Shown here: positions 4,396 to 38,746 of the stretch, piece after piece | Layout of the letters: the number at the start of each line of letters is the position of its first letter | Numbering within the stretch: position 1 is the stretch's first letter | From: a virus | Strand: one strand, 5' to 3' | Length of the DNA: 64,000 nucleotides | Virus record (IMG/VR): IMGVR_UViG_3300049137_000157 | Location: 96,001 to 160,000 of that record | Notes under the pieces: generated by a model | Database searches by the model: none | The model's input: only the letters and a program-made list of their open reading frames with translations | Told to the model about the DNA's origin: nothing | Program-made: the position numbers and the translations under genes

Positions 4396-6416
4396 CGACA
4401 GTTGGCTTCGACATTGAGACGGGATCCGTCGACGACCTCTACATGCTCGACCCGAGGAGCCCCGAGTACGACTACGTACGTCTCGTCGGCTGGGTCGTGG
4501 GAGACGGCGACGTCCAGATCTCCACGAACCCTCAGGACCTCATCGACGTCCTCAACGCCGCCGACATCATCTACGGCCACGGCATTCTGAACTTCGACCT
4601 CCAGGCCCTGTGCCGCTACCACGGAGCCGACTACTGGAAGCTCGCCGCCAAGTGCATCGACACCCTTGTCGTCGAGCGCACCATCAACCCGCCCTACCCG
4701 AAGGCCAAGCCCGGTATCCCGCTCAACCTCCAGGCCATGCGCAGGCGCGGCATCACCCCGGCCGACCTCCGCATCCCCTACAGCCTGGACGAAACCGCCG
4801 CGCGTTACGGCGTCGCGGGCAAGACGGACAACATCAAGGAACTCGCGGCCAAGCACGGAGGCTTCCACCTCATCCCGCAGGACGACCCGGAGTACCGGGC
4901 CTACCTGAAGGGTGACGTCATCTCCTCCAGGGCGCTCTACCGGGCCACCGGACAGGCTGCGGCCAAGGCGGGCCTCATATCTGTGGTGCGTCGCGAGATC
5001 CGGATCGCCGCCATCCAGAACGGCATGCGGATCAAGGGCCTGGGCGTCGACCGGGCCGAGGTCGAGCACCAGATCGAACTCGCCGAGAAGCAGCGTCAGG
5101 ACGCCTACCACGTACTGCACGAGAAGGCAGGCGTCCCTCTCCCCGGCCAGGAGATCGTCTGGTACGAGGAGAAGGAGAAACCGATCCCGCGCACCACGCC
5201 CTACGGCAAGCGGGTCCGGCACCTGTGGCACGTCCTTCACCCGAACGACCCCTGTCCCGACCTGCGCACCGTCCGGGTGAAGAAGACCAAGCGGATCGAC
5301 AAGTCCCCGCTGTCCACCAACGAGGGACGCAACGCCTTCGAGAAGGCCCTGAAAGCTGCCGGGGTCAAGGACACGGACATCCCGTTCACCCTGCCCACCA
5401 AGTCCAACCCCGGGGGCAAGCTCGCCCTGTCCAAGGATGCCCTCGGCACCGGCCGCTGGGTGCGCGGCAAGGAAGCGGTCCCGGGCCTCCAGGCGAAGTA
5501 CCCCGACAACCCGGCGGTGAAGGAGTTGTGCGAGGCGGCCATCCTGGCCACGTCCACCTCCGGCAAGGCCGAGGAGGTCATGAAGTGGCTCAGCCCCGAC
5601 GGCCGGGTCCACTCCCAGATCGGCGACATCCAGGCGTCCGGCAGGTGGGCCCACATCAAGGCGTCCATCACCAACATCGGGAAGCGGGGGAAGGCCCAGA
5701 AGATGCAGCGCCGGATGTTCCGCTCCCGGCGTGGGTTCGTCTTCATCTGCATCGACCTCGACCAGGTCGACGCGCGCGCCGTCGCCGGATGGTGCCAGGA
5801 CCCGGAGTACCGGAAGATGGCCCTCCCTGGCATGGACATGCACTATGAGACCGCGAAGCGAGTCTTCGGGGTCGGGTCCTGCAACGACTGCCGCAACTGC
5901 GCGGAGTGTTCCGAGCGGCGCAGCAAGGCGAAGGCGAACACCCACTCCTGGAACTACGGACAGGGCGTCAAGGGGTTGGCTGCTTCGACGGGTCTTCCGC
6001 TGGAAGTCTGCGAGACGTTCGACAAGGGGATGAAGAGGTCTTTCCCGGTGCTGTGTGCCTGGAAAGACAAGGTCCGCAGGTACGCGGAACGCACCGGAGT
6101 GGTGCCCAGCAAGTGGGGTCGCCCGCTGCGCGTCATCCCCGGCCAGGAGTACACACAGGCCCCGGCGCAGATCGGCCAGTCGACCACGCGAGACCTGCTG
6201 TGCGACGGACTGATCCGACTCCAGGACGAACACCCGGAAGTTCTGGAATGCTTGGTCCTGGTGATTCACGACGAAATCGTCCTGGAGGTCCCGGAAAACC
6301 TCGCCGACGAGTACGGAGAAAAGGCGATGGCCGCCCTGACGACCTCCTTCGAAGGAGTGCCGATCACATGTGGAAGGTCGCCCGCAGCAAGCGTCTGGGC
6401 GGAGTGTTACGACTGA
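4392..6416 (+). CDS. DNA polymerase, family A, with N-terminal 3'-5' exonuclease
   Basis: ExoI FDIET, ExoII GHGILNFD, ExoIII YLKGD; motif A DLDQVDAR, motif B RSKAKANTHSWNYG, motif C VIHDEI. Confidence 0.93.
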   Translation: MTTVGFDIETGSVDDLYMLDPRSPEYDYVRLVGWVVGDGDVQISTNPQDLIDVLNAADIIYGHGILNFDLQALCRYHGADYWKLAAKCIDTLVVERTINPPYPKAKPGIPLNLQAMRRRGITPADLRIPYSLDETAARYGVAGKTDNIKELAAKHGGFHLIPQDDPEYRAYLKGDVISSRALYRATGQAAAKAGLISVVRREIRIAAIQNGMRIKGLGVDRAEVEHQIELAEKQRQDAYHVLHEKAGVPLPGQEIVWYEEKEKPIPRTTPYGKRVRHLWHVLHPNDPCPDLRTVRVKKTKRIDKSPLSTNEGRNAFEKALKAAGVKDTDIPFTLPTKSNPGGKLALSKDALGTGRWVRGKEAVPGLQAKYPDNPAVKELCEAAILATSTSGKAEEVMKWLSPDGRVHSQIGDIQASGRWAHIKASITNIGKRGKAQKMQRRMFRSRRGFVFICIDLDQVDARAVAGWCQDPEYRKMALPGMDMHYETAKRVFGVGSCNDCRNCAECSERRSKAKANTHSWNYGQGVKGLAASTGLPLEVCETFDKGMKRSFPVLCAWKDKVRRYAERTGVVPSKWGRPLRVIPGQEYTQAPAQIGQSTTRDLLCDGLIRLQDEHPEVLECLVLVIHDEIVLEVPENLADEYGEKAMAALTTSFEGVPITCGRSPAASVWAECYD

Positions 6417-13080: not shown

Positions 13081-16000
13081 TCACCCCGACCCGCTGATCG
13101 TCGCCGCGTAAGCCAAGGACCGGTTGATCGTCGTGGACGTCGGCTCGGCCTGCGGGTACTGGTTGGTGATGTAGAAGGTCGTCGACGGGCCTGCCTGTTG
13201 CATCTGCGGCAGTCCGGCCAGATACGTCGACACCGATTCCGGCGGCATCTCCCGGACGAGGGACCGGGTCATCCGGGTCCCGCCGTCGTCACTGGAGAGG
13301 GTCACCGGGTTGTATTGCGGAGTGGCCGACTCGGACAGGTTGGAGAAGAAGTTCTTCAGCCCGGAGCCGCCGCCCCGGTTGATCATTTCCAGCAGTGCGC
13401 CGTACCGCTTCGCCGAGGCCGCGTTCACGACGAACTCACCGTTGGAGAGCATCATCGGAATCGAGTCGGACCTCGGACCGCCCGGCCCGTAGATCCAGCC
13501 ACCCGTCGCCGCCTGGCCCACCTTGGGCCCCGACGGCGGCTTGTTCTGCTGATAGTAGAAATACCCCACCCGAACCGTAGCGCTCCGCGTCAGGGCGCGC
13601 TGGATGCGCCCACCGGCCGTCTGGGCGGCCTGCACGATGCCGCCGAGCTGGCCCTTGAATGCTGCGACGTTCGCCAGTGTGACGCGGCCCTTCGGGTCGA
13701 GCTGGCCCTTGTTCGCCCGAGCGACCGCGTCCTTCAGGCCCTGGAGCAGTGCTTTGAACTCGTCGTCGTCGAGGTCGCCACTGCCGTCGACGTCGAACTT
13801 GCCGACAGCCTCCTCGCCCATGATCAGCAGGGCCAGGTTCTCCATCTGCTGCCGGTACTTCTCGTCGTGGAGCTGAGCGTCTCCCTTGGGGTTCAGCAGA
13901 CCCTGGCCCTCGGTGCTCGCGAGGAACTGCGTCAGGGCGAGGACCTTGGCCCGGAACTCTTCGTCGCTGAAGGCACCCTTGCCGTCCGCGTCCAGACGGC
14001 GTTCCAGCTTCAGCGCGTCGAGTTCACCGACCAAACGGGTGAGCTGCCAGTGGAAGAGGCGGGCGTCCAGGGTGGCGAGGCCCTTCGCGTCGAGCTTCCC
14101 GGACGCCTTCGCCTCGGCGATGATCTGCTGGAGCTTCCCGATGTCGAGTCGCGCCTTGATCATGTCGATCGCGATCTCGGGGGAGATCTTCAGCTTGTCG
14201 ACGTAGTAGATGTAGCGTTCGACCTCGCGCAGGCTGTTGAATGCCTCGACGTCGTTCGCCGACAGGGTGATCTCGACCTTCGAGTCCTTCAGCTTCCCGA
14301 TGATCTTCTGGTACTGGTCGGACACGTAGGCGAATTCCTCTGCGGTCTCCGCTTTGTTCACCAGGTTGCCGAAGGTGTTGGAGATCGCTGTCCGCATGTT
14401 CAGGCTGGCATTCTCGACCTTGCCCGAGTTCGCGATGATCGAGGTGGCCAGTTCGTTGACAGCGTCAGACCCGATCGCCCGGAGGCGGGGAGCCAGCTCC
14501 TCCATCTCGGCGGCCGACAGATTCGCCAGTTCCTCGACGGCCGGAGCGGCCTCCGGACCCAGCTTGCGGAACTGCTCCGCGATGTCCGGACCGAGGGTCG
14601 AGGCGATACGGATCAGGTTGGTCGACCAGTCCCGCTGCGCCTCTGCAATTTTCTCCAGTTGATCGAGGTACAGGTCCAGGCTGGCGCGTGAGTTCAGGGA
14701 GAACTTCTCGATCGCGTCCTCGGCCCCCGGGAACGCCGCCTCGGCCGCAGCCTTGAAGGCGTCCATCGGGCCGCCGAACCCCTCCAAGGACTTCGACAGC
14801 TCATCGATCACGGCCTTGGCGTCTTCGGCGCTCAGATCAAGATCTTCGAGAGACGCCGTGGTCAGCTTGATGGCCCCCGACGCCGAGCCGATCTCCTTGC
14901 CGGTCGAGCTGTACGCCTCTCCAAGCAGCGAGGCCGCAATCTCGTTCTTGGTGAACTCGCCCTCCTGCGCGATCAGCGTCGTCCGGAGGGCCTCAAGGAA
15001 TCCCTTCAGCCGCTGGGCGGCAGCCGCCTCGTTGCTGAGCTGTTCGGCGAACTCACCCTTCATGCCACCGGGCATGTAGTTGTCCGCCGTGGCGCTGACC
15101 TTGGTGATGGCCGCGTCGAGTTCGTCGAGCGCACCCTGCGGATCGGTCATGGACCGCTTCAGCAGCTCACCCACATTGAGGCCGGACTTGCCGAGCTGGT
15201 CCAGGGCGTCGGCACTGATCTTGCTGCCGTTGGCGAGCTTGGAAGAGCCGACAGCGGCCTCCGCCGTCGACCGGAGCCACGCTGCGGCCTGCTCGCCGAG
15301 AACCATCGTGTTCTCGCTGAGCGCCTGGGTGTTCTTGCGGATGACCCCTTCGGCCTTCTCCCATTCGGCCACGTAACCTGCGGCAGCCCGAGCAGATTCC
15401 CCGGTCCCCTTGGCCTGCTCACGCAGACTGCTGATAGAGGAGTTCGCCGTCTCAATGGCGATCTGCTCCGCCCTCGCACGGGCGATGGCGTTCTCGGCGG
15501 CCTCACGGTCCTTGGTGGAGGCGTTCTCCTTGGAGACCGTCAGGGTGCGATACGCGCCGATGCCCCGGAGAGCCTCGGCGGACCCACTGGCGACGGCAGC
15601 GTTGTACTTCTCCTGGCCTCCGGCCGCCTTGATCGCGGCCTCCGTGTCAGCACGGATTGCGTTGCCCAGCGCTTTCGTGCCGCCGGTCGCCTCAAGAGCT
15701 GCCTTGGAGATCTTCTCGGCCTCGCTCGTGAACAGGCCCATGCTTGCGATGGTCGGGCCGAAAATCAGAGCCAACGTGGTCAGGGCGATGCCCCACGGGC
15801 CGAAGGCGATCGAAGCCGCCCTGGCGGCCATGCCGGTCGCACCGATGGACCCCGCCGCACGACCCGACTGCACGGCAGCCGCCGAGATGGCAGCCGAGGT
15901 GGCGACACTCTGAGTGGCCAGACTCCTCTGTCCAATGGTGGCCTGAGCGGCGGCGGTGGTCTGCTGACGCAGGGAATTGGCCGAGGCGAAGGTGCCCGAC

Positions 16001-18585
16001 ACCAAGGCGGTCTGTCGCTGCGCCACCTGAGTGACAGCCTGACCCTGCTGCCGCAAGGCGTTGCCCGAGGCCGTGGCTCCCGCCGCCAGAACGGCCTGCT
16101 GCTGCGCGACCAAATGAGTGGCCTGCGCCTGGCGTTGGAAAGATCCTCCGGTCAGGGCGACCGCGTTCGTCAGACCCCGGGATGCCGCAGTTGCGACTGC
16201 CGAAGCTGTTGCCTGCTGCATCAAGGCGTTGGTCGCCTGGCTCGTGGCCAGGGCGTAAGCGCGGGCACCTGGAACGGCGGTGACCGTTGCCCGATTCTGG
16301 GCGAGGATGCTGGCGGTGTACCGAGCCGAATTCGTAGCCGCTTGTTGGTTCACCGTCAGGTTCTGCATGTAAGCCGAAGTGGCGACCCGTGTCGCGGCGG
16401 CCACTCGGCCCTGCGCGGCAACCTGAGACGCCATGGCCTGGCTGCTGGCGGTCTGCGCCGTGTTGAGTCGCCCCTGTGCGGCGGCGGCGGCGGGAAGGCC
16501 GTCGCGATAGATCGTCATGGCGTCCCGCATGCGCAGGGTCGTCGTGCCGAGAGTGGCCATCACCTCCCGGGATGCGATGGCGGCAGTGATGGCCTTCGCC
16601 GAGGCGATCCGCCACACCAGCCAGGCCGCAGCGCCCGCCGTTGCGGCCGTGGCGACCGAGCCGAGGATTCCGGCGATCGGACCCAGCTCGCCAACGAACT
16701 CGACAACCTCGGACAGGGCACCCGCAACCGTGCCGACTGCCTGACCGAGCGGTCCGCCCAGAATTGCCAGGGTGTTCTGGAAGGAGTCACCCAGGTTCTG
16801 GATCTCGGCGGCCGTGGTCTCGTAGATACCCTTGGACTGGCGCATCAGCTCGGAGCCCTTGGCGTACTCTTCGTCCGCTCGGCTGAACGACTCCCGGACG
16901 ATGTCGACGTTGTTCGCCAGACGCGAGAACACGTCGATGTCACGGACTGCGTTCACGCCGAGTTCGCGCAGAACACCTTGAACTTCGCCACCAGCTCCGG
17001 CGGCCCGAGACAGACCTTCCACGAACGTCAGGAAGAATCCACCGGGGTCCGTCTTGTACAGCTTCTTGGCCTCCTCGGACGTGATGCCCATGACGGTCGA
17101 GAGTTTGGCCACTTCGGTAGAGCTGCCGTTGACGGCAGTGCTGAGCTGGTTGAAGACACGTGTCAGGGCACCACGTGACAGCTCCGGGCGGACCTGAAGA
17201 GACGCCAGCGCTGCGGAGAGACCGGCCGTCTCCTGCTTGGTCAGTCCGAACAGGTTGGACACCGTGGCGATCGAGCTGTTGATCCGCAGGATCTCCTGGT
17301 CGGTGGCCACCGACGCCGTACCCAGCGCAAGGATTGCCGAGCCGAGCTGTTCCATCTCCGAGATCGGCACGTCCTGCATCTGCGCGATACGGCCGAGCAG
17401 CAGAGTCGCCTCGTCGGCGGACACCCCGGTCGTCAACGAGAAACGGACGATGGTGTCCGTGAAGTTTTCGAGCTGCTGAGTGGAGATGCCGATCTGCGCA
17501 CCGAGCTGACCGATGCGGGACACTTCCTCGAAGGAGATCGGCGCGTTGGCGGCGATGTCCTGGAAGGCCCGCTTCAGCCCCTGTGTCTCTTCTTCTGTGG
17601 CCACGATGACTCGGGCCACCTGGGCGAATGCCTGCTCCTGGGAGATGGCCGCCTGCGCCATCGCCAAAGGCAGATGGGAAATGATCTGGAGCAGCGACAT
17701 GAAGGACTGCTCCAGCTCGCCAACGGACGACCGCATGGCGTAGGACGACCTGGAGTACGAGGCGTTCGCCCCGGTCGCGGTGTTCGTCTGCATGGCCAGT
17801 CGCTGCCGGGACAGGGCCAGCCGTTCATCTTCCTGCGCCAGCCGCTGCGCCGCCTGAGCATGCTTCTCCCGGGCCTGCCGGAGCTTCTCCTCCTGGAGGG
17901 CGAGCTTGGAGGTGGCTTCCAGGGCCTTGAGGCGAGCCAATTCGGCCTTCTGTTCGGCCGCCGCCGCGTTCTGGGTGATCTGGGCCATGGTTCGCTGCAC
18001 TCCTGCGAGCCGGGTGACCACAGCCGCCATCCGCTCGTACAGCGTGATGGTGCGCGAGAGTCGGGCGTACTCCTTCTCGCCCATGCCCTGAACACTCGAC
18101 AGGGCATTGCGTAGCCCCGTGAAGGCTTTCTCCACGCCTTTGGAGGTCTGGCCCATCTTCCCTTGGGCCTGAGAAAGTGTGGAGACAATCGTCGCCAGGT
18201 TCTTGTACAGAGCCATCGTCCGCTGCATCTCGGCGGACTGCGCCCGGGACGTGCCGTTGACCGTCCCCATGATGGTGTTCAGGGCGGTGAGCGCCTGGGC
18301 CATCCGCTTGGACCCGCGCTCGATTTCCTTCTTCTTCTGCGGCAAGTTACTGATGGCAGATGCGTAATTGCCGACCGTGCTGATGAGCGAGTTGTAGACC
18401 GAAAGAGACTTACGCAGTTCCGCAGCGGTCTGCTTTTCGACCTTGGCGACACTGCCCATGACGTTGTTCAGGTTCTGGAATATTCGCTCCATGTGGCCAC
18501 CGGCTTTGGTGATGGCCTGGGAACCCTGAGCAAACGAGCGGAGGTCCAGGTTGATCCGAGCAGTTGCGTCGAACCGCGTGGCCAC
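13081..18585 (-). CDS. Tape measure protein
   Basis: 1834 aa Ala-rich helical protein; TP901-type core and C-terminal ATGGWIYGPGGPRSDSIPMMLSNGEFVV motif. Confidence 0.93.
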   Translation of the reverse strand: MATRFDATARINLDLRSFAQGSQAITKAGGHMERIFQNLNNVMGSVAKVEKQTAAELRKSLSVYNSLISTVGNYASAISNLPQKKKEIERGSKRMAQALTALNTIMGTVNGTSRAQSAEMQRTMALYKNLATIVSTLSQAQGKMGQTSKGVEKAFTGLRNALSSVQGMGEKEYARLSRTITLYERMAAVVTRLAGVQRTMAQITQNAAAAEQKAELARLKALEATSKLALQEEKLRQAREKHAQAAQRLAQEDERLALSRQRLAMQTNTATGANASYSRSSYAMRSSVGELEQSFMSLLQIISHLPLAMAQAAISQEQAFAQVARVIVATEEETQGLKRAFQDIAANAPISFEEVSRIGQLGAQIGISTQQLENFTDTIVRFSLTTGVSADEATLLLGRIAQMQDVPISEMEQLGSAILALGTASVATDQEILRINSSIATVSNLFGLTKQETAGLSAALASLQVRPELSRGALTRVFNQLSTAVNGSSTEVAKLSTVMGITSEEAKKLYKTDPGGFFLTFVEGLSRAAGAGGEVQGVLRELGVNAVRDIDVFSRLANNVDIVRESFSRADEEYAKGSELMRQSKGIYETTAAEIQNLGDSFQNTLAILGGPLGQAVGTVAGALSEVVEFVGELGPIAGILGSVATAATAGAAAWLVWRIASAKAITAAIASREVMATLGTTTLRMRDAMTIYRDGLPAAAAAQGRLNTAQTASSQAMASQVAAQGRVAAATRVATSAYMQNLTVNQQAATNSARYTASILAQNRATVTAVPGARAYALATSQATNALMQQATASAVATAASRGLTNAVALTGGSFQRQAQATHLVAQQQAVLAAGATASGNALRQQGQAVTQVAQRQTALVSGTFASANSLRQQTTAAAQATIGQRSLATQSVATSAAISAAAVQSGRAAGSIGATGMAARAASIAFGPWGIALTTLALIFGPTIASMGLFTSEAEKISKAALEATGGTKALGNAIRADTEAAIKAAGGQEKYNAAVASGSAEALRGIGAYRTLTVSKENASTKDREAAENAIARARAEQIAIETANSSISSLREQAKGTGESARAAAGYVAEWEKAEGVIRKNTQALSENTMVLGEQAAAWLRSTAEAAVGSSKLANGSKISADALDQLGKSGLNVGELLKRSMTDPQGALDELDAAITKVSATADNYMPGGMKGEFAEQLSNEAAAAQRLKGFLEALRTTLIAQEGEFTKNEIAASLLGEAYSSTGKEIGSASGAIKLTTASLEDLDLSAEDAKAVIDELSKSLEGFGGPMDAFKAAAEAAFPGAEDAIEKFSLNSRASLDLYLDQLEKIAEAQRDWSTNLIRIASTLGPDIAEQFRKLGPEAAPAVEELANLSAAEMEELAPRLRAIGSDAVNELATSIIANSGKVENASLNMRTAISNTFGNLVNKAETAEEFAYVSDQYQKIIGKLKDSKVEITLSANDVEAFNSLREVERYIYYVDKLKISPEIAIDMIKARLDIGKLQQIIAEAKASGKLDAKGLATLDARLFHWQLTRLVGELDALKLERRLDADGKGAFSDEEFRAKVLALTQFLASTEGQGLLNPKGDAQLHDEKYRQQMENLALLIMGEEAVGKFDVDGSGDLDDDEFKALLQGLKDAVARANKGQLDPKGRVTLANVAAFKGQLGGIVQAAQTAGGRIQRALTRSATVRVGYFYYQQNKPPSGPKVGQAATGGWIYGPGGPRSDSIPMMLSNGEFVVNAASAKRYGALLEMINRGGGSGLKNFFSNLSESATPQYNPVTLSSDDGGTRMTRSLVREMPPESVSTYLAGLPQMQQAGPSTTFYITNQYPQAEPTSTTINRSLAYAATISGSG

Positions 18586-21388: not shown

Positions 21389-22237
21389 CTAGATCTGGTA
21401 GACGCCCCCCAGTGCGCCGACCTCCAGTGTCGTCGAAAGATTGCTGTTGAGGTCCACGGTTTCATGGTCCTTGTGGGAGACGGCGTGAGCGTTCAGTTCC
21501 CCGGAGGACATGGCCAGAAGACGTTCGGCGCGTTCCACCAATGAACCTCCGGACAGGGGCCGACCCTGCCGGTTGTATCCGTAGAAGCCCGCGTGATAGG
21601 CCCGGGGCCGCGCGGTGTAGACCGTCACGCCACCCACGCCTTCCCTCACCCGGTTGACGAGACCGTCCTGCTCGGCGAACGGGGCGGGGATCGCACTCGA
21701 AGGAAACGTCCGGGTGCAGTAGCCGACCATGTTCCGGAAGTACGCCGGGACCGCGTGCTCCAGGACGAGTTCCACCGCTTTCGGCCTGAGGGATACCCCG
21801 AGAGACTGGTACGAGGGATGCGTGTACGCGGCCCCGTCGTCCATGGCGTTCTGATTCCGGCAGGCACTCACAGCGAAGGCGTCCGGCACCGCCCGGTGCA
21901 TGTCCTCGTGGAACGAGAAGTACGTCGCGGCGACGAAGATGTCCTCCTCGACCACGTGCAGGAGGTCCGGCTTAAAGGTCAGACAGTCCCGCATCCCCGT
22001 CAGCACGTTGTAGGAGTTGCCGTGGAAGCGGTGCGGAGGGACCTGCCGCAGGTGCAGCCCGGCAAAAGCGTCCGAGGAGGCGAACGCCTGAGCCGCCTCC
22101 ACGCACTCGGAACTGCCCGCACGGTCAAGGCTGACCACAACGTGCACGTCCTCGGCTCGGGCGGCCTGAAGGCGCGTCAGGCAGGCGTACAGCATGTCGG
22201 GTCTACGCCAGGCCGGAACGAGGACGACATGCTTCAC
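21389..22237 (-). CDS. Glycosyltransferase, GT-A fold (probable)
   Basis: N-terminal VLVPAWRRPDML, VVVSLD and VVEED (DXD-like) motifs. Confidence 0.7.
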   Translation of the reverse strand: MKHVVLVPAWRRPDMLYACLTRLQAARAEDVHVVVSLDRAGSSECVEAAQAFASSDAFAGLHLRQVPPHRFHGNSYNVLTGMRDCLTFKPDLLHVVEEDIFVAATYFSFHEDMHRAVPDAFAVSACRNQNAMDDGAAYTHPSYQSLGVSLRPKAVELVLEHAVPAYFRNMVGYCTRTFPSSAIPAPFAEQDGLVNRVREGVGGVTVYTARPRAYHAGFYGYNRQGRPLSGGSLVERAERLLAMSSGELNAHAVSHKDHETVDLNSNLSTTLEVGALGGVYQI

Positions 22238-23142
22238 AGCTTCTCCAGCAGTTCGAGGGCCGTGTCCCGGAACGCATGATTGCGGACGAGGAAGTGCCTG
22301 CGGGCAAGACGTCCCATCTCCGAGCGGTCCTCCGGGGCGAGGGACGCAGCCCGGCGTACAGCTTCAGCGATCGAATCGGGGCCCGCCAACAGAAGATGCG
22401 ACTGATGATGCTTGGAGGGGCCTGTCGGGGCGTCTATCAGGAAACCCCAGCCCGGCCGGATGTGCTCGTTCATCGGGGATCCGTTGGTCGTGACGACCAC
22501 GGCCTCCGCCGACATGGCCTCGGTGATGTAGTGGCCCCAGCCCTCCGCCCTCGACGGGCACACGTGGATCTCCGCCTGGTTGATAAGGGTGTCCAGCTCC
22601 TCCACGCTGGGACTCACGACCAGCCGGACTCCGTACGGCACGGGCATGTCGTCCCGGGACACCACCGTGAGCGGGGGCAGATCGGGGTGGGCCCGCCAGG
22701 CTTCGAGGACCTGCATGGTCCCCTTCATGTCGGATTTCCCCCGGATGTGCAGGCACTCCAGACGACGGGGAACGGACCGGTCCATGCGGTCCTTCCCCAG
22801 GAAGCCCGTCATGTACGTCGTCCGGCTGCCGTGCCGGACGCAGGTGTTGTGCGCATCCCAGCCCTTGGCCCAGATCTGATCGAAGGCCGGAATGTAACGG
22901 AGCCACTCGCGGGGGTACCACTCCATGTTCGGAACGAGCACGTTCCGGTGTGCCCGCTTGGCGAGCGTCACGCTGACGAGTTCCAGATGGAACGCCGCGT
23001 CGGCCAGTTCCATCGTGCGCGACTTCCACGGCACAAAGCTGACCTGGTGTCCGGCGCTCTCGAAGAGATCGGTCAGCAGCTCGACATCCAGCGACAAACC
23101 CACCCCGTTGTCGTTGGTGAGCAGGGCTATCTTCAGGCCCAC
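22234..23142 (-). CDS. Glycosyltransferase, GT-B fold (GT4-like)
   Basis: HIRGKSDMKG and VCPSRAEGWGHYITEAMS (E-x7-E signature). Confidence 0.88.
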   Translation of the reverse strand: MGLKIALLTNDNGVGLSLDVELLTDLFESAGHQVSFVPWKSRTMELADAAFHLELVSVTLAKRAHRNVLVPNMEWYPREWLRYIPAFDQIWAKGWDAHNTCVRHGSRTTYMTGFLGKDRMDRSVPRRLECLHIRGKSDMKGTMQVLEAWRAHPDLPPLTVVSRDDMPVPYGVRLVVSPSVEELDTLINQAEIHVCPSRAEGWGHYITEAMSAEAVVVTTNGSPMNEHIRPGWGFLIDAPTGPSKHHQSHLLLAGPDSIAEAVRRAASLAPEDRSEMGRLARRHFLVRNHAFRDTALELLEKL

Positions 23143-24509: not shown

Positions 24510-25109
24510 GTGCTCCTTAGCGACTACCACCTGATCGCCGCGATCTCCACGCAGCGCATTTCCGTCGAGCCCTACAGCCCGAGGATGATCCAGCCCGCGT
24601 CCCTCGAAGTGAGTCTCGACCGAAGATTCCTGGTCTTCGACAGCCACCTCTACTCGCACATAGATCCGCAGGAAGAGCAGCCGGATCTGACGCGTCTCGT
24701 GGAGGTGGAGGACGACCAACCGTTCATTCTCCATCCCGGCGAGTTCGTCCTCGGCAGCGTCCTGGAGAAGACGACTCTCGGCAGTGACCTCGCAGCGCGC
24801 GTCGAAGGTAAAAGTTCCTTGGGGCGTCTCGGGCTTGTTGTTCATTCCACGGCGGGATTCATAGACCCGGGGTTCTCCGGTCACATCACGCTGGAGTTGT
24901 CCAACCTCGCCACCCTGCCGATCAAGCTGTGGCCCGGCATGAAGATCGGTCAACTCTGCTTCTTCGAACTGACAGGGCCAGCCGAGTTCCCCTACGGAAG
25001 CCCGGAACGCGGCTCCCACTACCAGGGGCAGTCCGGGCCCACGCCCTCCCGGTCATGGCAACGCTTCTATCGCAGCAAGATCCCGTCATCCGCAACCCGG
25101 CAGAGTTGA
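24510..25109 (+). CDS. dcd: dCTP deaminase
   Basis: [41 protein letters not shown] and YQGQ motifs. Confidence 0.93.
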
Positions 25110-27353: not shown

Positions 27354-27561
27354 GGGTTGCTCCTTGTCGCTTGAGGGTGGCGATGCACTTGGTGCAGGTG
27401 ACCGGGTGATCACCGGGCAGCCACGTGTGGTCGATCCCGGGATCCAGCCAGACCAGACAGGCGGTGTTGTGGCCGCCCGCCAGGATGCTTCGGGCTGCAT
27501 GGACGGGGTCCATGCCGGGGTAGCGGACCCTCTCGGGGAATTCGACGGGGGGCAGAACCAT
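27346..27561 (-). CDS. Small Cys/His protein
   Basis: 71 aa with H...C...CxxC; GAGGAG RBS. Confidence 0.55.
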   Translation of the reverse strand: MVLPPVEFPERVRYPGMDPVHAARSILAGGHNTACLVWLDPGIDHTWLPGDHPVTCTKCIATLKRQGATRV

Positions 27562-27627
27562 GGGGGTCTCCTCAGGGTTGAGTGCGTGATTTACCTTCGG
27601 TGATCGCGGCGCAGTAGAAGGCGAACC

Positions 27628-27960
27628 TCAAGGCCCCTCCAGGTCATCCAGTTCACCGGCCAGCACCTTGCGTCCGTTCTTGGTGAGGGTGACCGGCTCG
27701 TGCCAGTCGCTGAACTCGTTTCCGCCGTCGATCCGGGGGCCGTGTTCCACGAGACCCAGCGCGACGAGAGCGGACAGGGTGGGCCGGGGGATGGTGATCC
27801 ACGTGGAGGGGGTCCGCTCCTGCGACGTGTACGACCGGTAGTACGTGTACCGGGTTCGGTCGGTACCGGGGATGTTCTGGTGAATGACGCGATAGTTCCC
27901 GACGGTGCGCAAGGCGTTGAAGCGCGCCACCGTCATCTTCTTCCTTGGAGCGTCGAGCAC
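27628..27960 (-). CDS. Hypothetical protein (winged-helix-like)
   Basis: 110 aa; PTLSALVALGLV and VTLTKNGRKVL patterns. Confidence 0.55.
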   Translation of the reverse strand: MLDAPRKKMTVARFNALRTVGNYRVIHQNIPGTDRTRYTYYRSYTSQERTPSTWITIPRPTLSALVALGLVEHGPRIDGGNEFSDWHEPVTLTKNGRKVLAGELDDLEGP

Positions 27961-27980
27961 GTGTCTTCTCCTTTCGCCCG

Positions 27981-28337
27981 TCAGTCGACGGGTCGGTTTC
28001 GGCGGACTCGGGGCCGACCGTTGCGCTCCAACAGTCGGTAGAGCCGCGAGGGGGCCATGGCGGCGGCGATACCGATCGCCTTACGGTCCGCGTTGGGGCT
28101 GGTCAGGTCCGCCTTGACGATGGCTTGCTCCCAGAACAGGTCCAAGTGGCGACGGACCTGAGACGTCCTGCTGAGCGTGGCGGTCAGTTCCTCGAAGGAC
28201 CGCGCGTGACGAGGCGGGTCCACCGTTGTCGACTGCTTCAGGGCCGCGAGAATCGCGTCCGCGAGATCCGGGTCGACATCGGAGACCGTCTCGTTGTTGC
28301 CCTCGGCGTCGTGGAACGTGATGACCTTCTTGTTCAT
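27981..28337 (-). CDS. Putative HTH DNA-binding protein
   Basis: RKAIGIAAAMAPSRLYRLLER HTH-like C-terminus; upstream TTGTGT-17-TAACGT promoter. Confidence 0.55.
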   Translation of the reverse strand: MNKKVITFHDAEGNNETVSDVDPDLADAILAALKQSTTVDPPRHARSFEELTATLSRTSQVRRHLDLFWEQAIVKADLTSPNADRKAIGIAAAMAPSRLYRLLERNGRPRVRRNRPVD

Positions 28338-28406
28338 GTACCGAACGTTACACGACTACCGATCGGTACACAAGAAGTTTCCGTACAACGTGCCACCGTT
28401 GACCGC

Positions 28407-28640
28407 GTGAGTGCATACGAAGACGACCCGACGCTCTATCCGCCGCAGCCCGACCCACCCGACGACCCCAGATTTGAGTGGATCGACGTGCAGGGCTTCG
28501 GCGACGAGGGCCCCAACTGGATCAGGGGTGCCTGTCGCCACCTGTTGTTCTCTGCGGAGTTCAGCGCCGACGGCAGGGGGCTCGCGGGCTTCCCCTGTCC
28601 GGACTGCGGGCGACGACTTCCGCCTGAGGGCAGCCCTTGA
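28407..28640 (+). CDS. Small Zn-ribbon-like protein
   Basis: GTG start; CRH...CPDCG. Confidence 0.45.
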   Translation: MSAYEDDPTLYPPQPDPPDDPRFEWIDVQGFGDEGPNWIRGACRHLLFSAEFSADGRGLAGFPCPDCGRRLPPEGSP

Positions 28641-28819
28641 AACGCCTCAGCGCCCGCCAGGAAAACGAGAAAGAAACCTGGCGGGCGCTGAAGGTTCATC
28701 TTGTCGTCGCGGGGACCATTTCCGTTTGCCCCGGGCGGCCCACGACGACATCCACTTCGCTCAACAGGTGAACCGAGAGCGTGGCCACCCTACTGAACTT
28801 GTAGACATGGAGGCAACGT

Positions 28820-29728
28820 TCAGCCGGAGAGCAGGTCGGCTATCGCCCGGGAGATGGGTTGCCCGGTGGCCAGCTCGATGAACCCGAACTGACCTCCCGG
28901 GTTGCACTCCAGGAACCACCACCGACCCTCGCGGTCCACGACGAAGTCGAACGCCCCGTAGGTCAGACCACTCAGCCCCATGAACGCGTTGACCGCAGCC
29001 TCCACGTACGGGGGTGTCGGAACTTCCTTCCACTGCACCCCTTCGGTGAACCGGACGTCCGCGTCGGCGCACTGGGCCTCGGCGCAGAACATCTCGGTGC
29101 CCACGACCGTGAGCCGGATGTCCGCGATCTTCTCCACGGCCTGCTGAAAACAGGTCGGAGACCCCGCAACCGAGGACAGGTCGACGTCGGGGGAGATCCG
29201 CGCAGTCGGCAGGGCAACGCCATCCGGCTGGCGGCCGGACACCGTCTTGCACACCATCGGACCATTGTGACTCCGAAAGTACCTGGCCTCGACATCGCAT
29301 GTCGTGACCAAGGTGGGGGGAGTGAGCAGTCCGGCCCGGTGGGCGAGGAGGAGCTGAGGCGTCTTGTAGCGAGCCCTCTCGTGGGCCTCCGGGTCATTGA
29401 CCCACCGGACCCCCGGCAAGGCCCTCAGGGAGCCGTAGAAGGCGTGCAGAGCTTCGTGCGCGGACCACTCCTGATGCGCCCCGGGAACCGCGCCAGGGAG
29501 CCCCGGGCGGCGCACCCAGACCGACCTGATCGACGACAGCAGGAGCCTGCGACGTCCGTCCCAGAGGTACCCATCGACCACCCCGTGCTCAGTGACAGAG
29601 GTGAGGTCGACCCGGCCCGGAAAATCGGCCGGGTCGACCCTGAAGACAGGCGTACCGGCCTGGTGGAGCTGGTGCACCACCATGTCCGCAGTCACGTCTT
29701 CCGGGCACGTGAGCACCAGCACCGTCAT
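28820..29728 (-). CDS. ATP-grasp RiPP maturase (graspetide synthetase)
   Basis: VWVRRP, RARYKTPQL, PPTLVT, CFQQ..K.ADIRLTVVG, YGAFDF and FLECNPGGQF ATP-grasp motifs; 9 bp downstream of a precursor-like ORF. Confidence 0.88.
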   Translation of the reverse strand: MTVLVLTCPEDVTADMVVHQLHQAGTPVFRVDPADFPGRVDLTSVTEHGVVDGYLWDGRRRLLLSSIRSVWVRRPGLPGAVPGAHQEWSAHEALHAFYGSLRALPGVRWVNDPEAHERARYKTPQLLLAHRAGLLTPPTLVTTCDVEARYFRSHNGPMVCKTVSGRQPDGVALPTARISPDVDLSSVAGSPTCFQQAVEKIADIRLTVVGTEMFCAEAQCADADVRFTEGVQWKEVPTPPYVEAAVNAFMGLSGLTYGAFDFVVDREGRWWFLECNPGGQFGFIELATGQPISRAIADLLSG

Positions 29729-29737
29729 GGCGAGGCC

Positions 29738-29920
29738 CTAGTCGTCGAAGTGGGTCTTCGACCCGGCCGTGGAGGTGGTGGTGCTGTAGAGCGAGGTGTC
29801 CGAACCAACCACTGCGGGTGTGCCATCGGACAAGATGTTGAGCTGGCGCTCCTGGTCGTAGACGTACGGAGCGGCCGAGACGCTGTGCGTCGGGACGGCG
29901 TAGTTCAGAGCGAAGTGCAC
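29738..29920 (-). CDS. ATP-grasp-modified RiPP precursor peptide
   Basis: 60 aa; leader FALNYA..PYVYD..QLN; Ser/Thr/Lys/Asp-rich core STTTSTAGSKTHFDD; GGGAG RBS. Confidence 0.85.
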   Translation of the reverse strand: MHFALNYAVPTHSVSAAPYVYDQERQLNILSDGTPAVVGSDTSLYSTTTSTAGSKTHFDD

Positions 29921-29974
29921 GGAGGTTCACTCCCTACGGGGATGAGTTTGCGAAAACTCCGGCAGCAGGGCGTC

Positions 29975-30328
29975 TCAGGAGAACATCACCAGTAGGACGT
30001 CACTTCGCCGGAGGGTGTTCCTCAGGTCCTCGAACTCGTGCTCATCAAGGCCCGTGTGCGCTCGGGACGGGATGGCAACAACTTCCGCTTCCCCGGAAGT
30101 GTGGTCGAGGACCTTCCGCCATCCTCTCCGATGATCCAGAGAGGCGTGGGGGTCTTCTTCGATCACGGTGGCCACGTGCGGCCATCCTCGGAACCGTGTG
30201 TACTCCTCCGCCTTACGGGTCAAGCGCTCCCGGGCGGCCTCGTCGGAGGTGCAGATGTATGCGACGACGGGCGTAGGCCCGTGGCGGCAGGGACGGTCGT
30301 CGTGACACCCGTACATGAGGTGAGACAT
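29975..30328 (-). CDS. Degenerate serine-resolvase catalytic-domain-like protein
   Basis: VVAYICTS..RL..KAEEY..GW..E..AS..RRGW.KVL; lacks the canonical YxRVS arginine; GAGGAG RBS before ATG 30328. Confidence 0.5.
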   Translation of the reverse strand: MSHLMYGCHDDRPCRHGPTPVVAYICTSDEAARERLTRKAEEYTRFRGWPHVATVIEEDPHASLDHRRGWRKVLDHTSGEAEVVAIPSRAHTGLDEHEFEDLRNTLRRSDVLLVMFS

Positions 30329-30493
30329 CGGGCTCCTCGGGTCGACCGGCGACAAACTCTGACGGAAGTTCACCAGGTATCTCCGGTCGTACCGCAAGAG
30401 TAGAGCCGCGAATTCACTCGAAGGAAGGCCCGGTCGAGAGAGTGGCATATGCCACTTTTCCAGCCGGGCCTTCTGTGTGCTGACCTGCGGAAA

Positions 30494-30913
30494 CTACTTC
30501 TTGGGTGGATCTTCCCGAGTGGTCCGCCGGGCACTCAGGCTGGAAACCCCACGACTGAGCGAGTCGGCGCGGTCCGCTGCGGCCAGAAGCACCATCGCCA
30601 AGCGACGGGCGTCGGTCGGGTGCATGGCCACGAAGTCGAGCTGACGCTCCCAGTCGGCCAGCACGTACGGATCCGGCTGGGCGACGTAGACGCTGTCTCG
30701 GGCCTCCGTCTCGTCCACCGACCGCACGACCCACATCGGCGGCCGATGGGCGAAGGGTGCGTGCTGCACCACCCTCCACTCGGCCCCGGCCATGGAATGT
30801 CCTGGCGGGTTGATGATGTCTGGCTTAGGGCGTTCTGCGCTCTCCGCGATGGCGACGAGCCGGTGCAGCTCTTCGCGGAGATCACCCAGCTTGAGATCGT
30901 CGAAGCCGGTCAC
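30494..30913 (-). CDS. Hypothetical protein
   Basis: GTG start overlapping the upstream stop. Confidence 0.55.
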   Translation of the reverse strand: MTGFDDLKLGDLREELHRLVAIAESAERPKPDIINPPGHSMAGAEWRVVQHAPFAHRPPMWVVRSVDETEARDSVYVAQPDPYVLADWERQLDFVAMHPTDARRLAMVLLAAADRADSLSRGVSSLSARRTTREDPPKK

Positions 30914-31077
30914 TGGCCGGAGGTTCGCTTCTGCTGCTCCCGCCACTCCAGGCGCAGCTCACGGAGATCGTTGCAGATCCCGTCGTAGACGCCTTTCGCG
31001 CGCACGAGAGTCTTTCGCGCATCTTCGGCGTCAGCTTCCAGACGCCTCTTTTGGTTTTCGTACTCTTTTTCGGTCAT
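30910..31077 (-). CDS. Small coiled-coil protein
   Basis: GGAGG RBS; charged helical sequence. Confidence 0.55.
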   Translation of the reverse strand: MTEKEYENQKRRLEADAEDARKTLVRAKGVYDGICNDLRELRLEWREQQKRTSGQ

Positions 31078-31739
31078 CACGTGACCTCCCCTTCCGATTG
31101 CAGCCAATTCAGCCCGAACGCCTCCAGAACTGAGGCAGAGACGGGGGATCCTGCGACTTCCATTTCATCGACGAGCCGTAGGGCCCGATCGGCGATCACC
31201 AGCTCCCGGGGGACGGGCGCAACGTCGTCGCCGAGGCCACGGAGGAACTCCGCGACCCTGGACCAGGAGTAGAGCGAGGTTCCCCCCACCTTCTCTTCAG
31301 GTTGCGGAAATCCTCCCGGACCTCTTTGTCCCTTTGACAGTTGCACCAGTGACTGTCGGCTTCTCCCTGCCCGTTGTGCGGCGATGTCCAGGGTTACTGT
31401 GTCGTCGTGGATCACGCGCGATGCGCGAAGCCCTTCCATCCGGCGGATCTGTCGAGAGACCAGCGCGATGGCCTCAAGGATCGAGTCAGCCTCCACGTCG
31501 CAGTACAGCTCCGACACGCCAGGGCCGCCCGTGGTGTAAGAAATGGATCCGTCTGCGAAGAGCGAAAACCATCCGTTGGCGTTGAAGTCGATCAGGTTGG
31601 TCTCAGCTCGGGTCAGTTGCCGATTGAGAGCCAGAGCGAAGGTCCATTCGACAGACACGCCCTTGTCCTTTTCTTGAGTTGCGGCATTTTTGCTCGTGGT
31701 AGTGACAGGGGTGGACTCGTTGCAATTCACCTCTGTCAT
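31077..31739 (-). CDS. DNA-binding protein (antitoxin-like N-domain plus HTH)
   Basis: VEADSILEAIALV followed by VTLDIAAQRAGRSRQSLVQL..GPGGFPQP..LYSWSRV. Confidence 0.55.
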   Translation of the reverse strand: MTEVNCNESTPVTTTSKNAATQEKDKGVSVEWTFALALNRQLTRAETNLIDFNANGWFSLFADGSISYTTGGPGVSELYCDVEADSILEAIALVSRQIRRMEGLRASRVIHDDTVTLDIAAQRAGRSRQSLVQLSKGQRGPGGFPQPEEKVGGTSLYSWSRVAEFLRGLGDDVAPVPRELVIADRALRLVDEMEVAGSPVSASVLEAFGLNWLQSEGEVT

Positions 31740-37351: not shown

Positions 37352-38746
37352 TCAGGAACCCGACTTGGTCGAGCCCTTCGCCGAGGTGGTGCTGGACTTC
37401 GCCGACAGCGTGGTCAGGCCCGACGGAGCCGCGAAACCCGAACCGCCCGCCACCGGCAGGTTGCCCTCACCCGTGGAGACCGCGACGGCCGAGGCGTCGA
37501 TACCGGCCGCACCGATGATCGAACGCACGCGGTACTGGATGTCGTCGTGGCTGAAGCTGCCCTCGAACGGCGAGATCTCCGAACCGCCCAGCGCGCGGCC
37601 GGTGTCGCCCAGCGCACGCACCTCGGGGGTCTCGTGGCCACGCAGGAACGCGGTCACGATCGCCGGGCCACGCTCCGTGGTGCCGCCTGCGGGCAGAAGG
37701 TACCAGGTGGAGGCGGCGTTGGCCGACAGGTCGATCAGCGGCAGCCACGGGGACTCGACCACGGTGAAGCGACCCGCCACCGGGGACGCCACGTTCGTGC
37801 GGATCTCGGAGCCGTCGGGCATCCGCGACACGCGCATGTACGTGGTGGACCGGGCGATCTCCTGCGCGGTGAGCGCGAGGGACGGCGGCACCAGGAGCAC
37901 GAAGTTCTGCACGCGCACCTGACGACCCGCCACCTGCCGCGAGCCGATCTGGTTGATCGCCTGCTCGACGGCGTCCAGGCTCAGCGGCGGGTTGGTGATC
38001 GCGACGGTCTCGCCCGTCTCGTCCCGCACGTGCTGGACAACGTGGTTGCCGACCGGGGACATCGGACCGAAGTTCTCCGTGGTGGAGAAGAAGTCCGGGT
38101 TCGGACCCGACGCGGTCGCGAGGACGCCCGTGGTCAGGACGTCCTCGGTGTCACGCGCCCAGCGGGCCATCTCCGTCGGAAGCTGCTGGAGGACACCCAG
38201 CTCGTCGTTCATGAACGCTTCCCAGGAGAACGGGAAGCGCGCGCCGTACTTGTTGACGAAGAAATCCGTACCCTCGGTGGTGAGGTTGAAGGTCGGGTAC
38301 TCCGTCAGCTCCGGGATACGCGGCAGCGCGCGGACGTGACGCTCCGCACCACCGTTGCGGTCCGGCGACTGGTTGAAGCCGGTGTCCCAGCGGACCATGC
38401 GGGCCGGACGGAAGTCGGGCACCGTGGTCCGGACCGAGAAGGTCGGCCACTGCTGAGGCAGTTCGGCGTACTGGCCGATCATGGACGCCTGCGAGATCGC
38501 CTGAAACAGCAGCGGGAAGTCGCCGCTGGAGACGGCCTCACGCAGACGGCCCATCGGGACGGGGGCACCCGTCTCCGCCTCACGCTTCAGGCGCAGGAAC
38601 TCGATGGCACGGGACATCTTGAGCAGACGGGCGTCGGTCGACTCGCGCAGCGCAGCGCGGCGCTTGCCGTGAGCCTCGGCGATCCGGGCGAATTCCGGGT
38701 TCTCCGTGGCCTTGATTCCGTCGAGGAGGTTCAGCGCGGTGGTCAT
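37352..38746 (-). CDS. Major capsid protein
   Basis: 464 aa; KYGARFPFSWEAFMNDELG, LLVPPSL, W(Y)LLP and DDIQYRVR motifs of gpT-like HK97-fold capsids; very high GC3. Confidence 0.88.
   Translation of the reverse strand: MTTALNLLDGIKATENPEFARIAEAHGKRRAALRESTDARLLKMSRAIEFLRLKREAETGAPVPMGRLREAVSSGDFPLLFQAISQASMIGQYAELPQQWPTFSVRTTVPDFRPARMVRWDTGFNQSPDRNGGAERHVRALPRIPELTEYPTFNLTTEGTDFFVNKYGARFPFSWEAFMNDELGVLQQLPTEMARWARDTEDVLTTGVLATASGPNPDFFSTTENFGPMSPVGNHVVQHVRDETGETVAITNPPLSLDAVEQAINQIGSRQVAGRQVRVQNFVLLVPPSLALTAQEIARSTTYMRVSRMPDGSEIRTNVASPVAGRFTVVESPWLPLIDLSANAASTWYLLPAGGTTERGPAIVTAFLRGHETPEVRALGDTGRALGGSEISPFEGSFSHDDIQYRVRSIIGAAGIDASAVAVSTGEGNLPVAGGSGFAAPSGLTTLSAKSSTTSAKGSTKSGS

Follow-up and report, generated by a model that had tools for sequence, protein, structure and literature searches.

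The window, by which the whole 64,000-nucleotide stretch of DNA analysed here is meant, covers positions 96001-160000 of a 199,468-bp virus record that has direct terminal repeats and a CheckV completeness of 100%. On its minus strand, between two strong hairpins, lie in this order a gene for a small protein of predicted resolvase-like fold, a graspetide precursor gene and an ATP-grasp ligase gene. These features, together with one capsid and one tail gene that mark the two sides of the cassette, have the following window coordinates:

13084-18585, minus strand: tape measure gene (1834 aa), among the tail genes
28647-28691, minus strand: hairpin with a perfect 15-bp inverted repeat, about 130 nt past the ligase stop
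28820-29728, minus strand: ATP-grasp graspetide synthetase gene (302 aa), with matches to TIGR04187 and PF21068
29738-29920, minus strand: graspetide precursor gene (60 aa, GTG start), with matches to PF14404 and TIGR04186
29975-30328, minus strand: third gene (117 aa), predicted resolvase-catalytic-domain fold, directly upstream of the precursor gene
30424-30473, minus strand: hairpin formed by a 25-bp palindrome, about 95 nt before the third gene
37355-38746, minus strand: major capsid protein gene, on the capsid side of the cassette

The capsid region of the phage shares about 79% DNA identity with the large Streptomyces siphophages Kela, Satis and Frankenweenie. Along the minus strand, terminase, portal, protease and capsid genes are followed by about 12 kb of small accessory genes and then by the tail genes. 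The precursor and ligase genes lie within this accessory block, with the capsid genes on one side and the tail genes on the other. The block is hypervariable, as different genes occupy the syntenic position in Frankenweenie, and the cassette is absent from all three of these related isolated phages in INPHARED. The GC content of the cassette is 64-67%, against 63.8% for the phage. A preliminary description of this DNA had placed the pair in a phage accessory region, and that location holds. Because the record is complete, capsid and tail genes lie on both sides, the relatives lack the genes and the GC content matches, the cassette is phage cargo and not a host flank; flanking host DNA is ruled out on the same grounds. 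The cassette is thus accessory cargo that varies among related phages. A recent capture from a host chromosome is also ruled out, given that the closest host gene is at most 59% identical and that the GC content is that of the phage. Of the features by which a moron is recognized, a position inside a complete phage, absence from the INPHARED relatives and bracketing by hairpins were all found, and a promoter was not detected.

Most neighbours in the accessory block gave nothing with Pfam and PHROGs. PADLOC likewise returned no match for the cassette and its phage neighbours, with no defence or anti-defence family among them. None of the cassette neighbours matched a transporter, peptidase or isoaspartyl methyltransferase family, in agreement with the preliminary description, which had found no transporter, leader peptidase or isoaspartyl methyltransferase adjacent to the pair. 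At the tail-side border of the block is a dCTP deaminase-like gene (phrog_1663; window 24510-25106, plus strand), and a dCMP deaminase gene is found a few kb from the cassette of L014, a related phage-like contig. Two neighbouring glycosyltransferase-like genes (window 21389-23142, minus strand) lie inside the structural operon, and Frankenweenie genes 60 and 61, likewise annotated as glycosyltransferase-like, occupy the syntenic position. Elsewhere in the phage genome, outside the window, there is a tyrosine recombinase (PF00589, 64 bits, 410-aa frame) at G000:C1:14590-15078. Since the phage encodes this enzyme, a carrier state, either temperate or as a plasmid-prophage, is possible. Three further phage genes outside the window (G000:C1:69900-71914) have homologues that are 40-70% identical in IMG/VR provirus records, where they lie 4-5 kb upstream of distant graspetide ligases (L004, L006, L007, L009 and L013); one of the three overlaps a weak ParA-like match.

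The hairpin downstream of the ligase gene (28647-28691) has an RNA folding energy of -40 kcal/mol (z -7.9 against shuffles) and is likely the terminator of the cassette, a role stated no more firmly because a T-run is absent. The hairpin upstream of the third gene (30424-30473) has a folding energy of -33.6 kcal/mol (z -5.5); it lies 20 nt past the stop codon of the minus-strand ORF that comes before it and may shield the cassette from upstream transcription. Of another palindrome, one that recurs across the genome, only a copy with one mismatch is found within the third gene, which is at the chance level. No promoter was found by a sigma-70-type scan of positions 27500-31500.

The precursor was described at the outset as a 60-aa peptide with two terminal Asp residues, and both its ORF and that of the ligase proved to be exact and supported by HMMs, with 9 nt between the precursor stop and the ligase ATG. 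The precursor scores 72.3 bits with PF14404 'Strep_pep' (cut-off 25) and 38.5 bits with TIGR04186 (cut-off 25). A GGGAG box (29930-29934) is positioned 9 nt 5' of the GTG start. The GC3 values of the precursor and ligase genes, 0.88 and 0.85, are typical for the coding frames of the phage, and chance ORFs are ruled out by these values in combination with the HMM scores. The alignment identified the leader motifs FAL-x-Y and Y-x-YD-x-x-x-QLN-x-L-x-DG. The C-terminal core, TTTSTAGSKTHFDD, ends in two Asp and conforms to the group 11 consensus STAGS-K-THFDD, with Ser, Thr and Lys as donors and the two terminal Asp.

The core of the phage precursor is far better conserved than the remainder of the peptide. 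Its last 14 residues are identical to those of the S. prunicolor NBRC 13075 precursor. In the precursor alignments, the core is 14/14 identical while overall precursor identity is 53-62%. A scan of species genomes yielded more than 560 ligase relatives, and the counts for comparison use the best 80 of these. At all 80 Streptomyces species loci, a PF14404-type precursor adjoins the ligase and STAGS-x-THFDD is present, and the core TTTSTAGSKTHFDD itself is shared by 43 of the 80. The preliminary description had considered the pair the strongest candidate for a new system. In chemical terms the system is not new, since no other core is as common on Streptomyces chromosomes. Nor is the exact core preserved across all mobile copies, since three of the closest precursors from mobile elements end in DDTD and not in FDD.

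The ligase combines an MvdD-like pre-ATP-grasp domain with an ATP-grasp domain. It scores 51.4 bits with PF21068, the MvdD pre-ATP-grasp domain (cut-off 27), and 319.7 bits with TIGR04187 'ATP-grasp ribosomal peptide maturase', for which the next family scores 146.6. This value falls below the curated NCBIfam cut-off of 350, and the ligase is therefore regarded as a divergent member of TIGR04187. The structure-database matches were PDB 9bou (E 9e-80), MdnB 5ig8 (E 1.5e-31) and MdnC, the latter also weaker than 9bou. Among 119 homologues, 85 alignment columns show a conservation of 95% or more, and the ligase retains 81 of these, including the E274-x-N276 pair. As judged from this alignment, the ligase is intact at the conserved positions of its family, which bears out what had been said of it from the ORF. 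Its nearest relatives share 59% identity, the bulk of the Streptomyces enzymes 47-53% and the S. prunicolor ligase about 49%.

By these profile and structure matches, the two genes form a graspetide precursor and ATP-grasp pair, as had been proposed, and belong to graspetide group 11 of the prunipeptin type. The resemblance to prunipeptin that had originally been suggested is correct, given that PF14404 defines group 11 and that the last 14 residues are those of S. prunicolor NBRC 13075. Prunipeptin of S. prunicolor is itself a group 11 graspetide, and the group includes 3324 clusters, all of which have a PF14404 precursor; transporters and peptidases are not regularly present (Carter et al. 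2026, PMC13097080, supplementary tables). Because their absence is normal for group 11, the lack of a transporter and peptidase near the phage pair says little. The prunipeptin genes (PruA/PruB) and the phage cassette have in common the precursor family, the leader motifs, the last 14 residues, the enzyme architecture and a minimal layout from which transporter and peptidase are missing. In contrast, the prunipeptin system is chromosomal, whereas the cassette is on a phage and its ligase is placed in a separate mobile clade and below the NCBIfam cut-off. The phage operon also adds the resolvase-like gene, which is not among the listed co-occurring families of group 11 (PMC13097080).

The preliminary description had presented a pathway of two genes and had overlooked both the conserved third gene directly upstream and the two bracketing hairpins; the unit consists of three genes. 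The start of the third gene corresponds to M41 of a longer ORF, a choice based on four aligned homologues and on the presence of a GAGGAG box (30333-30338). Homologues are found directly upstream of the precursor and ligase genes in L014/L027, L018, L020/L021, L110, L114, L030 and L044, so that, in addition to the phage, at least six contexts have the gene together with the pair. It is kept in every member of the ligase clade described below, with 43-57% identity. Among the chromosomal loci with the best 80 of the more than 560 ligase relatives, it is missing at 78, and homologues with 31-32% identity lie upstream of the precursor at the other two. One member of the protein family was found without any graspetide genes.

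The third protein itself had no Pfam match at E <= 0.1, and a scan of the whole phage genome with PF00239 gave no match. Some of its relatives do pass the PF00239 Resolvase model, for example P0140 with 34 bits against a cut-off of 23.3. A profile search of 1.84 billion representatives recovered a small family, with 47 members at E <= 0.001 and 15 at E <= 1e-10. The ten structures nearest to the Atlas model of the protein all belong to recombinase/resolvase-type clusters (TM 0.73-0.81 by query), of which eight are named recombinase or resolvase and six have PF00239. Similarly, VIA-align placed ten serine recombinase domains among the top 17 matches, with Z of 4.3-6.0. Foldseek against the PDB gave no significant match, the best being an IS607-like recombinase domain at E 0.17. 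The resolvase-fold assignment therefore follows from the Atlas and VIA results and the Pfam matches of the relatives and not from Foldseek. A separate structure model of the protein made in this analysis is of middling confidence (pLDDT 66).

Despite this predicted fold, which it shares with the serine recombinase catalytic domain (PF00239), the third protein differs from that domain in several respects. It scores below the Pfam model, and neither the nucleophile Ser nor the Asp-Arg...Arg motif is conserved in the family alignment; the residue four after the invariant Tyr varies (S, R, P, S, E...). No DNA-binding domain is present, as the 117-aa chain ends after the catalytic-domain fold. On the other hand, an additional N-terminal Cys/His motif, GCHxDRxCRHGP, is invariant in the close family. 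From the alignment and the model, the protein is read as a non-catalytic resolvase-fold protein that was recruited to a branch of group 11. It is probably a pathway partner or regulator without catalytic activity and not a recombinase.

In a quick maximum-likelihood tree, the ligase groups with four proteins in a clade with an SH-aLRT of 99, in which all branches are long and which falls inside the diversity of group 11. According to this tree, the ligase belongs to a well-supported small clade on phage-like and integrative elements. One of the contexts is a contig family from several sequencing runs, up to 66 kb long and with a GC content of 64.5%, that has at least eight other genes and several PHROG families in common with the phage. 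Its cassette is located elsewhere, beside genes whose homologues sit about 100 kb away in the phage. The second context is a 7-kb contig with ThyX, PadR and a tyrosine integrase, and the third is a metagenome contig. The fourth is a low-GC island in the chromosome of Streptomyces sp. NPDC006704, which includes Prim-Pol, an XRE/DUF397 pair and an LmuB/mad3-like ATPase; the latter, an 840-aa SMC-like protein (L020:12700-15219) beside the cassette copy, matches the defence models mad3 and LmuB. The only genes common to these contexts are the three of the cassette. Because the nearest ligases are just 59% identical and the well-supported clade is found on mobile DNA, the cassette appears to have resided on mobile elements for a long time.

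The preliminary description had proposed a search of phage and prophage databases for the pair, and the outcome depended on the collection. INPHARED contains a ligase homologue in no isolated Streptomyces phage, and its only two ligase matches, a faecal contig and Leptospira phage LE1, are both distant. A plasmid collection gave no relevant match. In IMG/VR the pair was recovered. Most of the eleven ligase matches there (36-42% identity) represent other graspetide branches, and several are provirus calls. The only one shown to be related to the phage is L010/G001, an 89-kb phage whose terminase is 40% identical and which carries a distant pair. A search of IMG/VR with the core motif identified four further viral contigs. 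One of these, L122 (56.6 kb), encodes a precursor and a ligase with 49% identity and is without the third gene. The other three, L119-L121 (GC 57-60%), encode a PF14404 precursor with the same core and have no ligase within reach. L119 is IMG/VR record UViG_3300037510_000086 (58,253 bp), which is rated 100% complete as a CheckV estimate and is without end repeats. Its orphan precursor gene (5001-5195), with the canonical core, immediately follows a TerD-domain gene, and 2 kb further on lies a gene for a tail assembly chaperone. In the whole of the 58-kb record, an ATP-grasp ligase was not detected, and the maturation of its peptide would therefore depend on a host enzyme. A TerD-domain gene near the precursor was observed in two unrelated phage contexts (L014:7214-7957 and L119:4216-4887), which may be a coincidence or may point to a functional link with stress or development in Streptomyces.

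In conclusion, the locus is probably a self-contained, mobile, three-gene group 11 cassette that forms part of the accessory cargo of a large Streptomyces siphophage and makes a bicyclic peptide of host type inside the cell. Based on the chemistry of the family, the ligase would bind the leader through its pre-ATP-grasp domain and use ATP to phosphorylate the side-chain carboxylates of the two terminal Asp residues. It would then close one ester ring with a Thr or Ser and one isopeptide ring with the Lys, giving a bicyclic product by the loss of 2 x 18 Da. Unno & Kodani 2021, like Rubin et al. 2024, reportedly found one ester and one isopeptide ring in prunipeptin as well. Because an exporter and a leader peptidase are absent, the product is expected to remain in the cell, where general proteases may trim it.

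The phage peptide probably shares its conserved intracellular target with the host's own peptide. This suggestion comes from comparing the sequences: the host core is maintained exactly while the leader and the enzyme have drifted to 50-60% identity, and some phages carry the precursor only. The favoured guess as to what the phage gains is mimicry, whereby it would increase the amount of an effector of host type or set its timing. A broader proposal, which is tentative and rather unlikely as a whole, is that Streptomyces phages exploit a near-universal peptide pathway of their hosts, some with their own ligase and resolvase-fold partner and some with an orphan precursor that needs the host ligase.

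Other uses of the peptide, or none, have also to be weighed against this reading. The preliminary description had proposed a protease or defence inhibitor or a phage signal, all of which are guesses. The cyclised peptide could inhibit a serine protease of the host, such as an enzyme that breaks down phage proteins or sets off abortive infection, as the peptides of several graspetide groups are potent inhibitors of such enzymes (introduction, PMC13097080). This would parallel the microviridins, marinostatins and plesiocin, and it is consistent with the intracellular action implied by the absence of an exporter; moreover, the NPDC006704 copy shares its region with a gene for an HtrA-like trypsin/PDZ protease and adjoins the defence-type ATPase. 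However, we found no group 11 peptide recorded as a protease inhibitor, PADLOC gave no match in the cassette or its phage neighbours, and the core, on our own reading, seems to be without the bulky P1 context of microviridin-type inhibitors. Inhibition of a protease is considered unlikely.

It is less likely still that the peptide is an intracellular anti-phage or growth-modulating factor that shields the carrier cell from rival phages. There is a precedent in an intracellular lanthipeptide family of Streptomyces that has been reported to be anti-phage (bioRxiv 10.1101/2024.06.26.600839; PMC12360287). The phage tyrosine recombinase (PF00589, 64 bits) would permit a carrier state, the hairpin-bracketed unit resembles a moron, and related cassettes occur on an integrase-bearing element and beside a Lamassu-like ATPase. 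Yet phages with a precursor alone would then arm the host against phages like themselves, the group 11 peptides have no known link to phage resistance, and the related isolates Kela, Satis and Frankenweenie are without the cassette. The hypervariability of the accessory block, the content of which differs in Frankenweenie, and the empty promoter scan might instead suggest DNA of host or mobile origin that was recently captured or is decaying and does nothing for the phage. This is very improbable, given that no host gene exceeds 59% identity and the GC content is that of the phage, that none of the three ORFs is disrupted and the ligase retains 81 of its 85 conserved positions, and that a second phage-like lineage of distant relationship has kept the cassette as well.

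Two known systems resemble the cassette in other ways. In the rosaritide system (MirA/MirB/MirC), the partner protein MirC stabilises and activates the synthetase MirB (Carter et al. 2026, PMC13097080). There too, the genes for the precursor and the synthetase stand in strict linkage with that for a small protein of non-enzymatic appearance. The rosaritide partner, however, is a PpiC-type chaperone-domain protein, whereas the candidate partner in the phage cassette has a predicted resolvase-domain fold. Biosynthetic clusters are also known from phages, an example being sublancin on SPbeta (Dragos et al. 2020, bioRxiv 10.1101/2020.10.01.322628), and here as well a ribosomal peptide pathway serves as accessory cargo. 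Those clusters mostly encode bacteriocins that are exported and accompanied by immunity genes, and the phages concerned are temperate ones from Firmicutes and Proteobacteria. In contrast, the peptide of the cassette is host-like, an exporter is absent and the carrier is a 199-kb actinophage. ATP-grasp peptides are not mentioned in the survey of Dragos et al. 2020 (bioRxiv 10.1101/2020.10.01.322628). In the literature searched, no published description was found of a graspetide or other ATP-grasp peptide pathway on a phage, nor any report of a biological role for the group 11 graspetides.

While the chemistry is already known, the novelty consists of the phage setting and the mobile clade, together with the resolvase-like third gene and the presence of orphan precursors. 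The finding draws its weight from the identity of the core, from those precursors and from that gene. ATP-grasp peptides can thereby be added to the few natural-product pathways that phages are known to carry. In addition, a small resolvase-fold protein becomes a candidate third component of such pathways, of a kind that current genome-mining rules do not score. Group 11 graspetides rank among the commonest small biosynthetic clusters of Streptomyces, and the presence of the same core peptide in integrative elements and in several phages that are not related to one another, whether or not the enzyme accompanies it, offers a handle on their role. As phages carry this core, the target of the peptide should matter in infection. 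If Streptomyces phages do exploit the host pathway, the resolvase-like protein would represent a new kind of graspetide synthetase partner, and this widespread peptide would be an intracellular effector relevant to infection, for example in the control of development, stress or defence.
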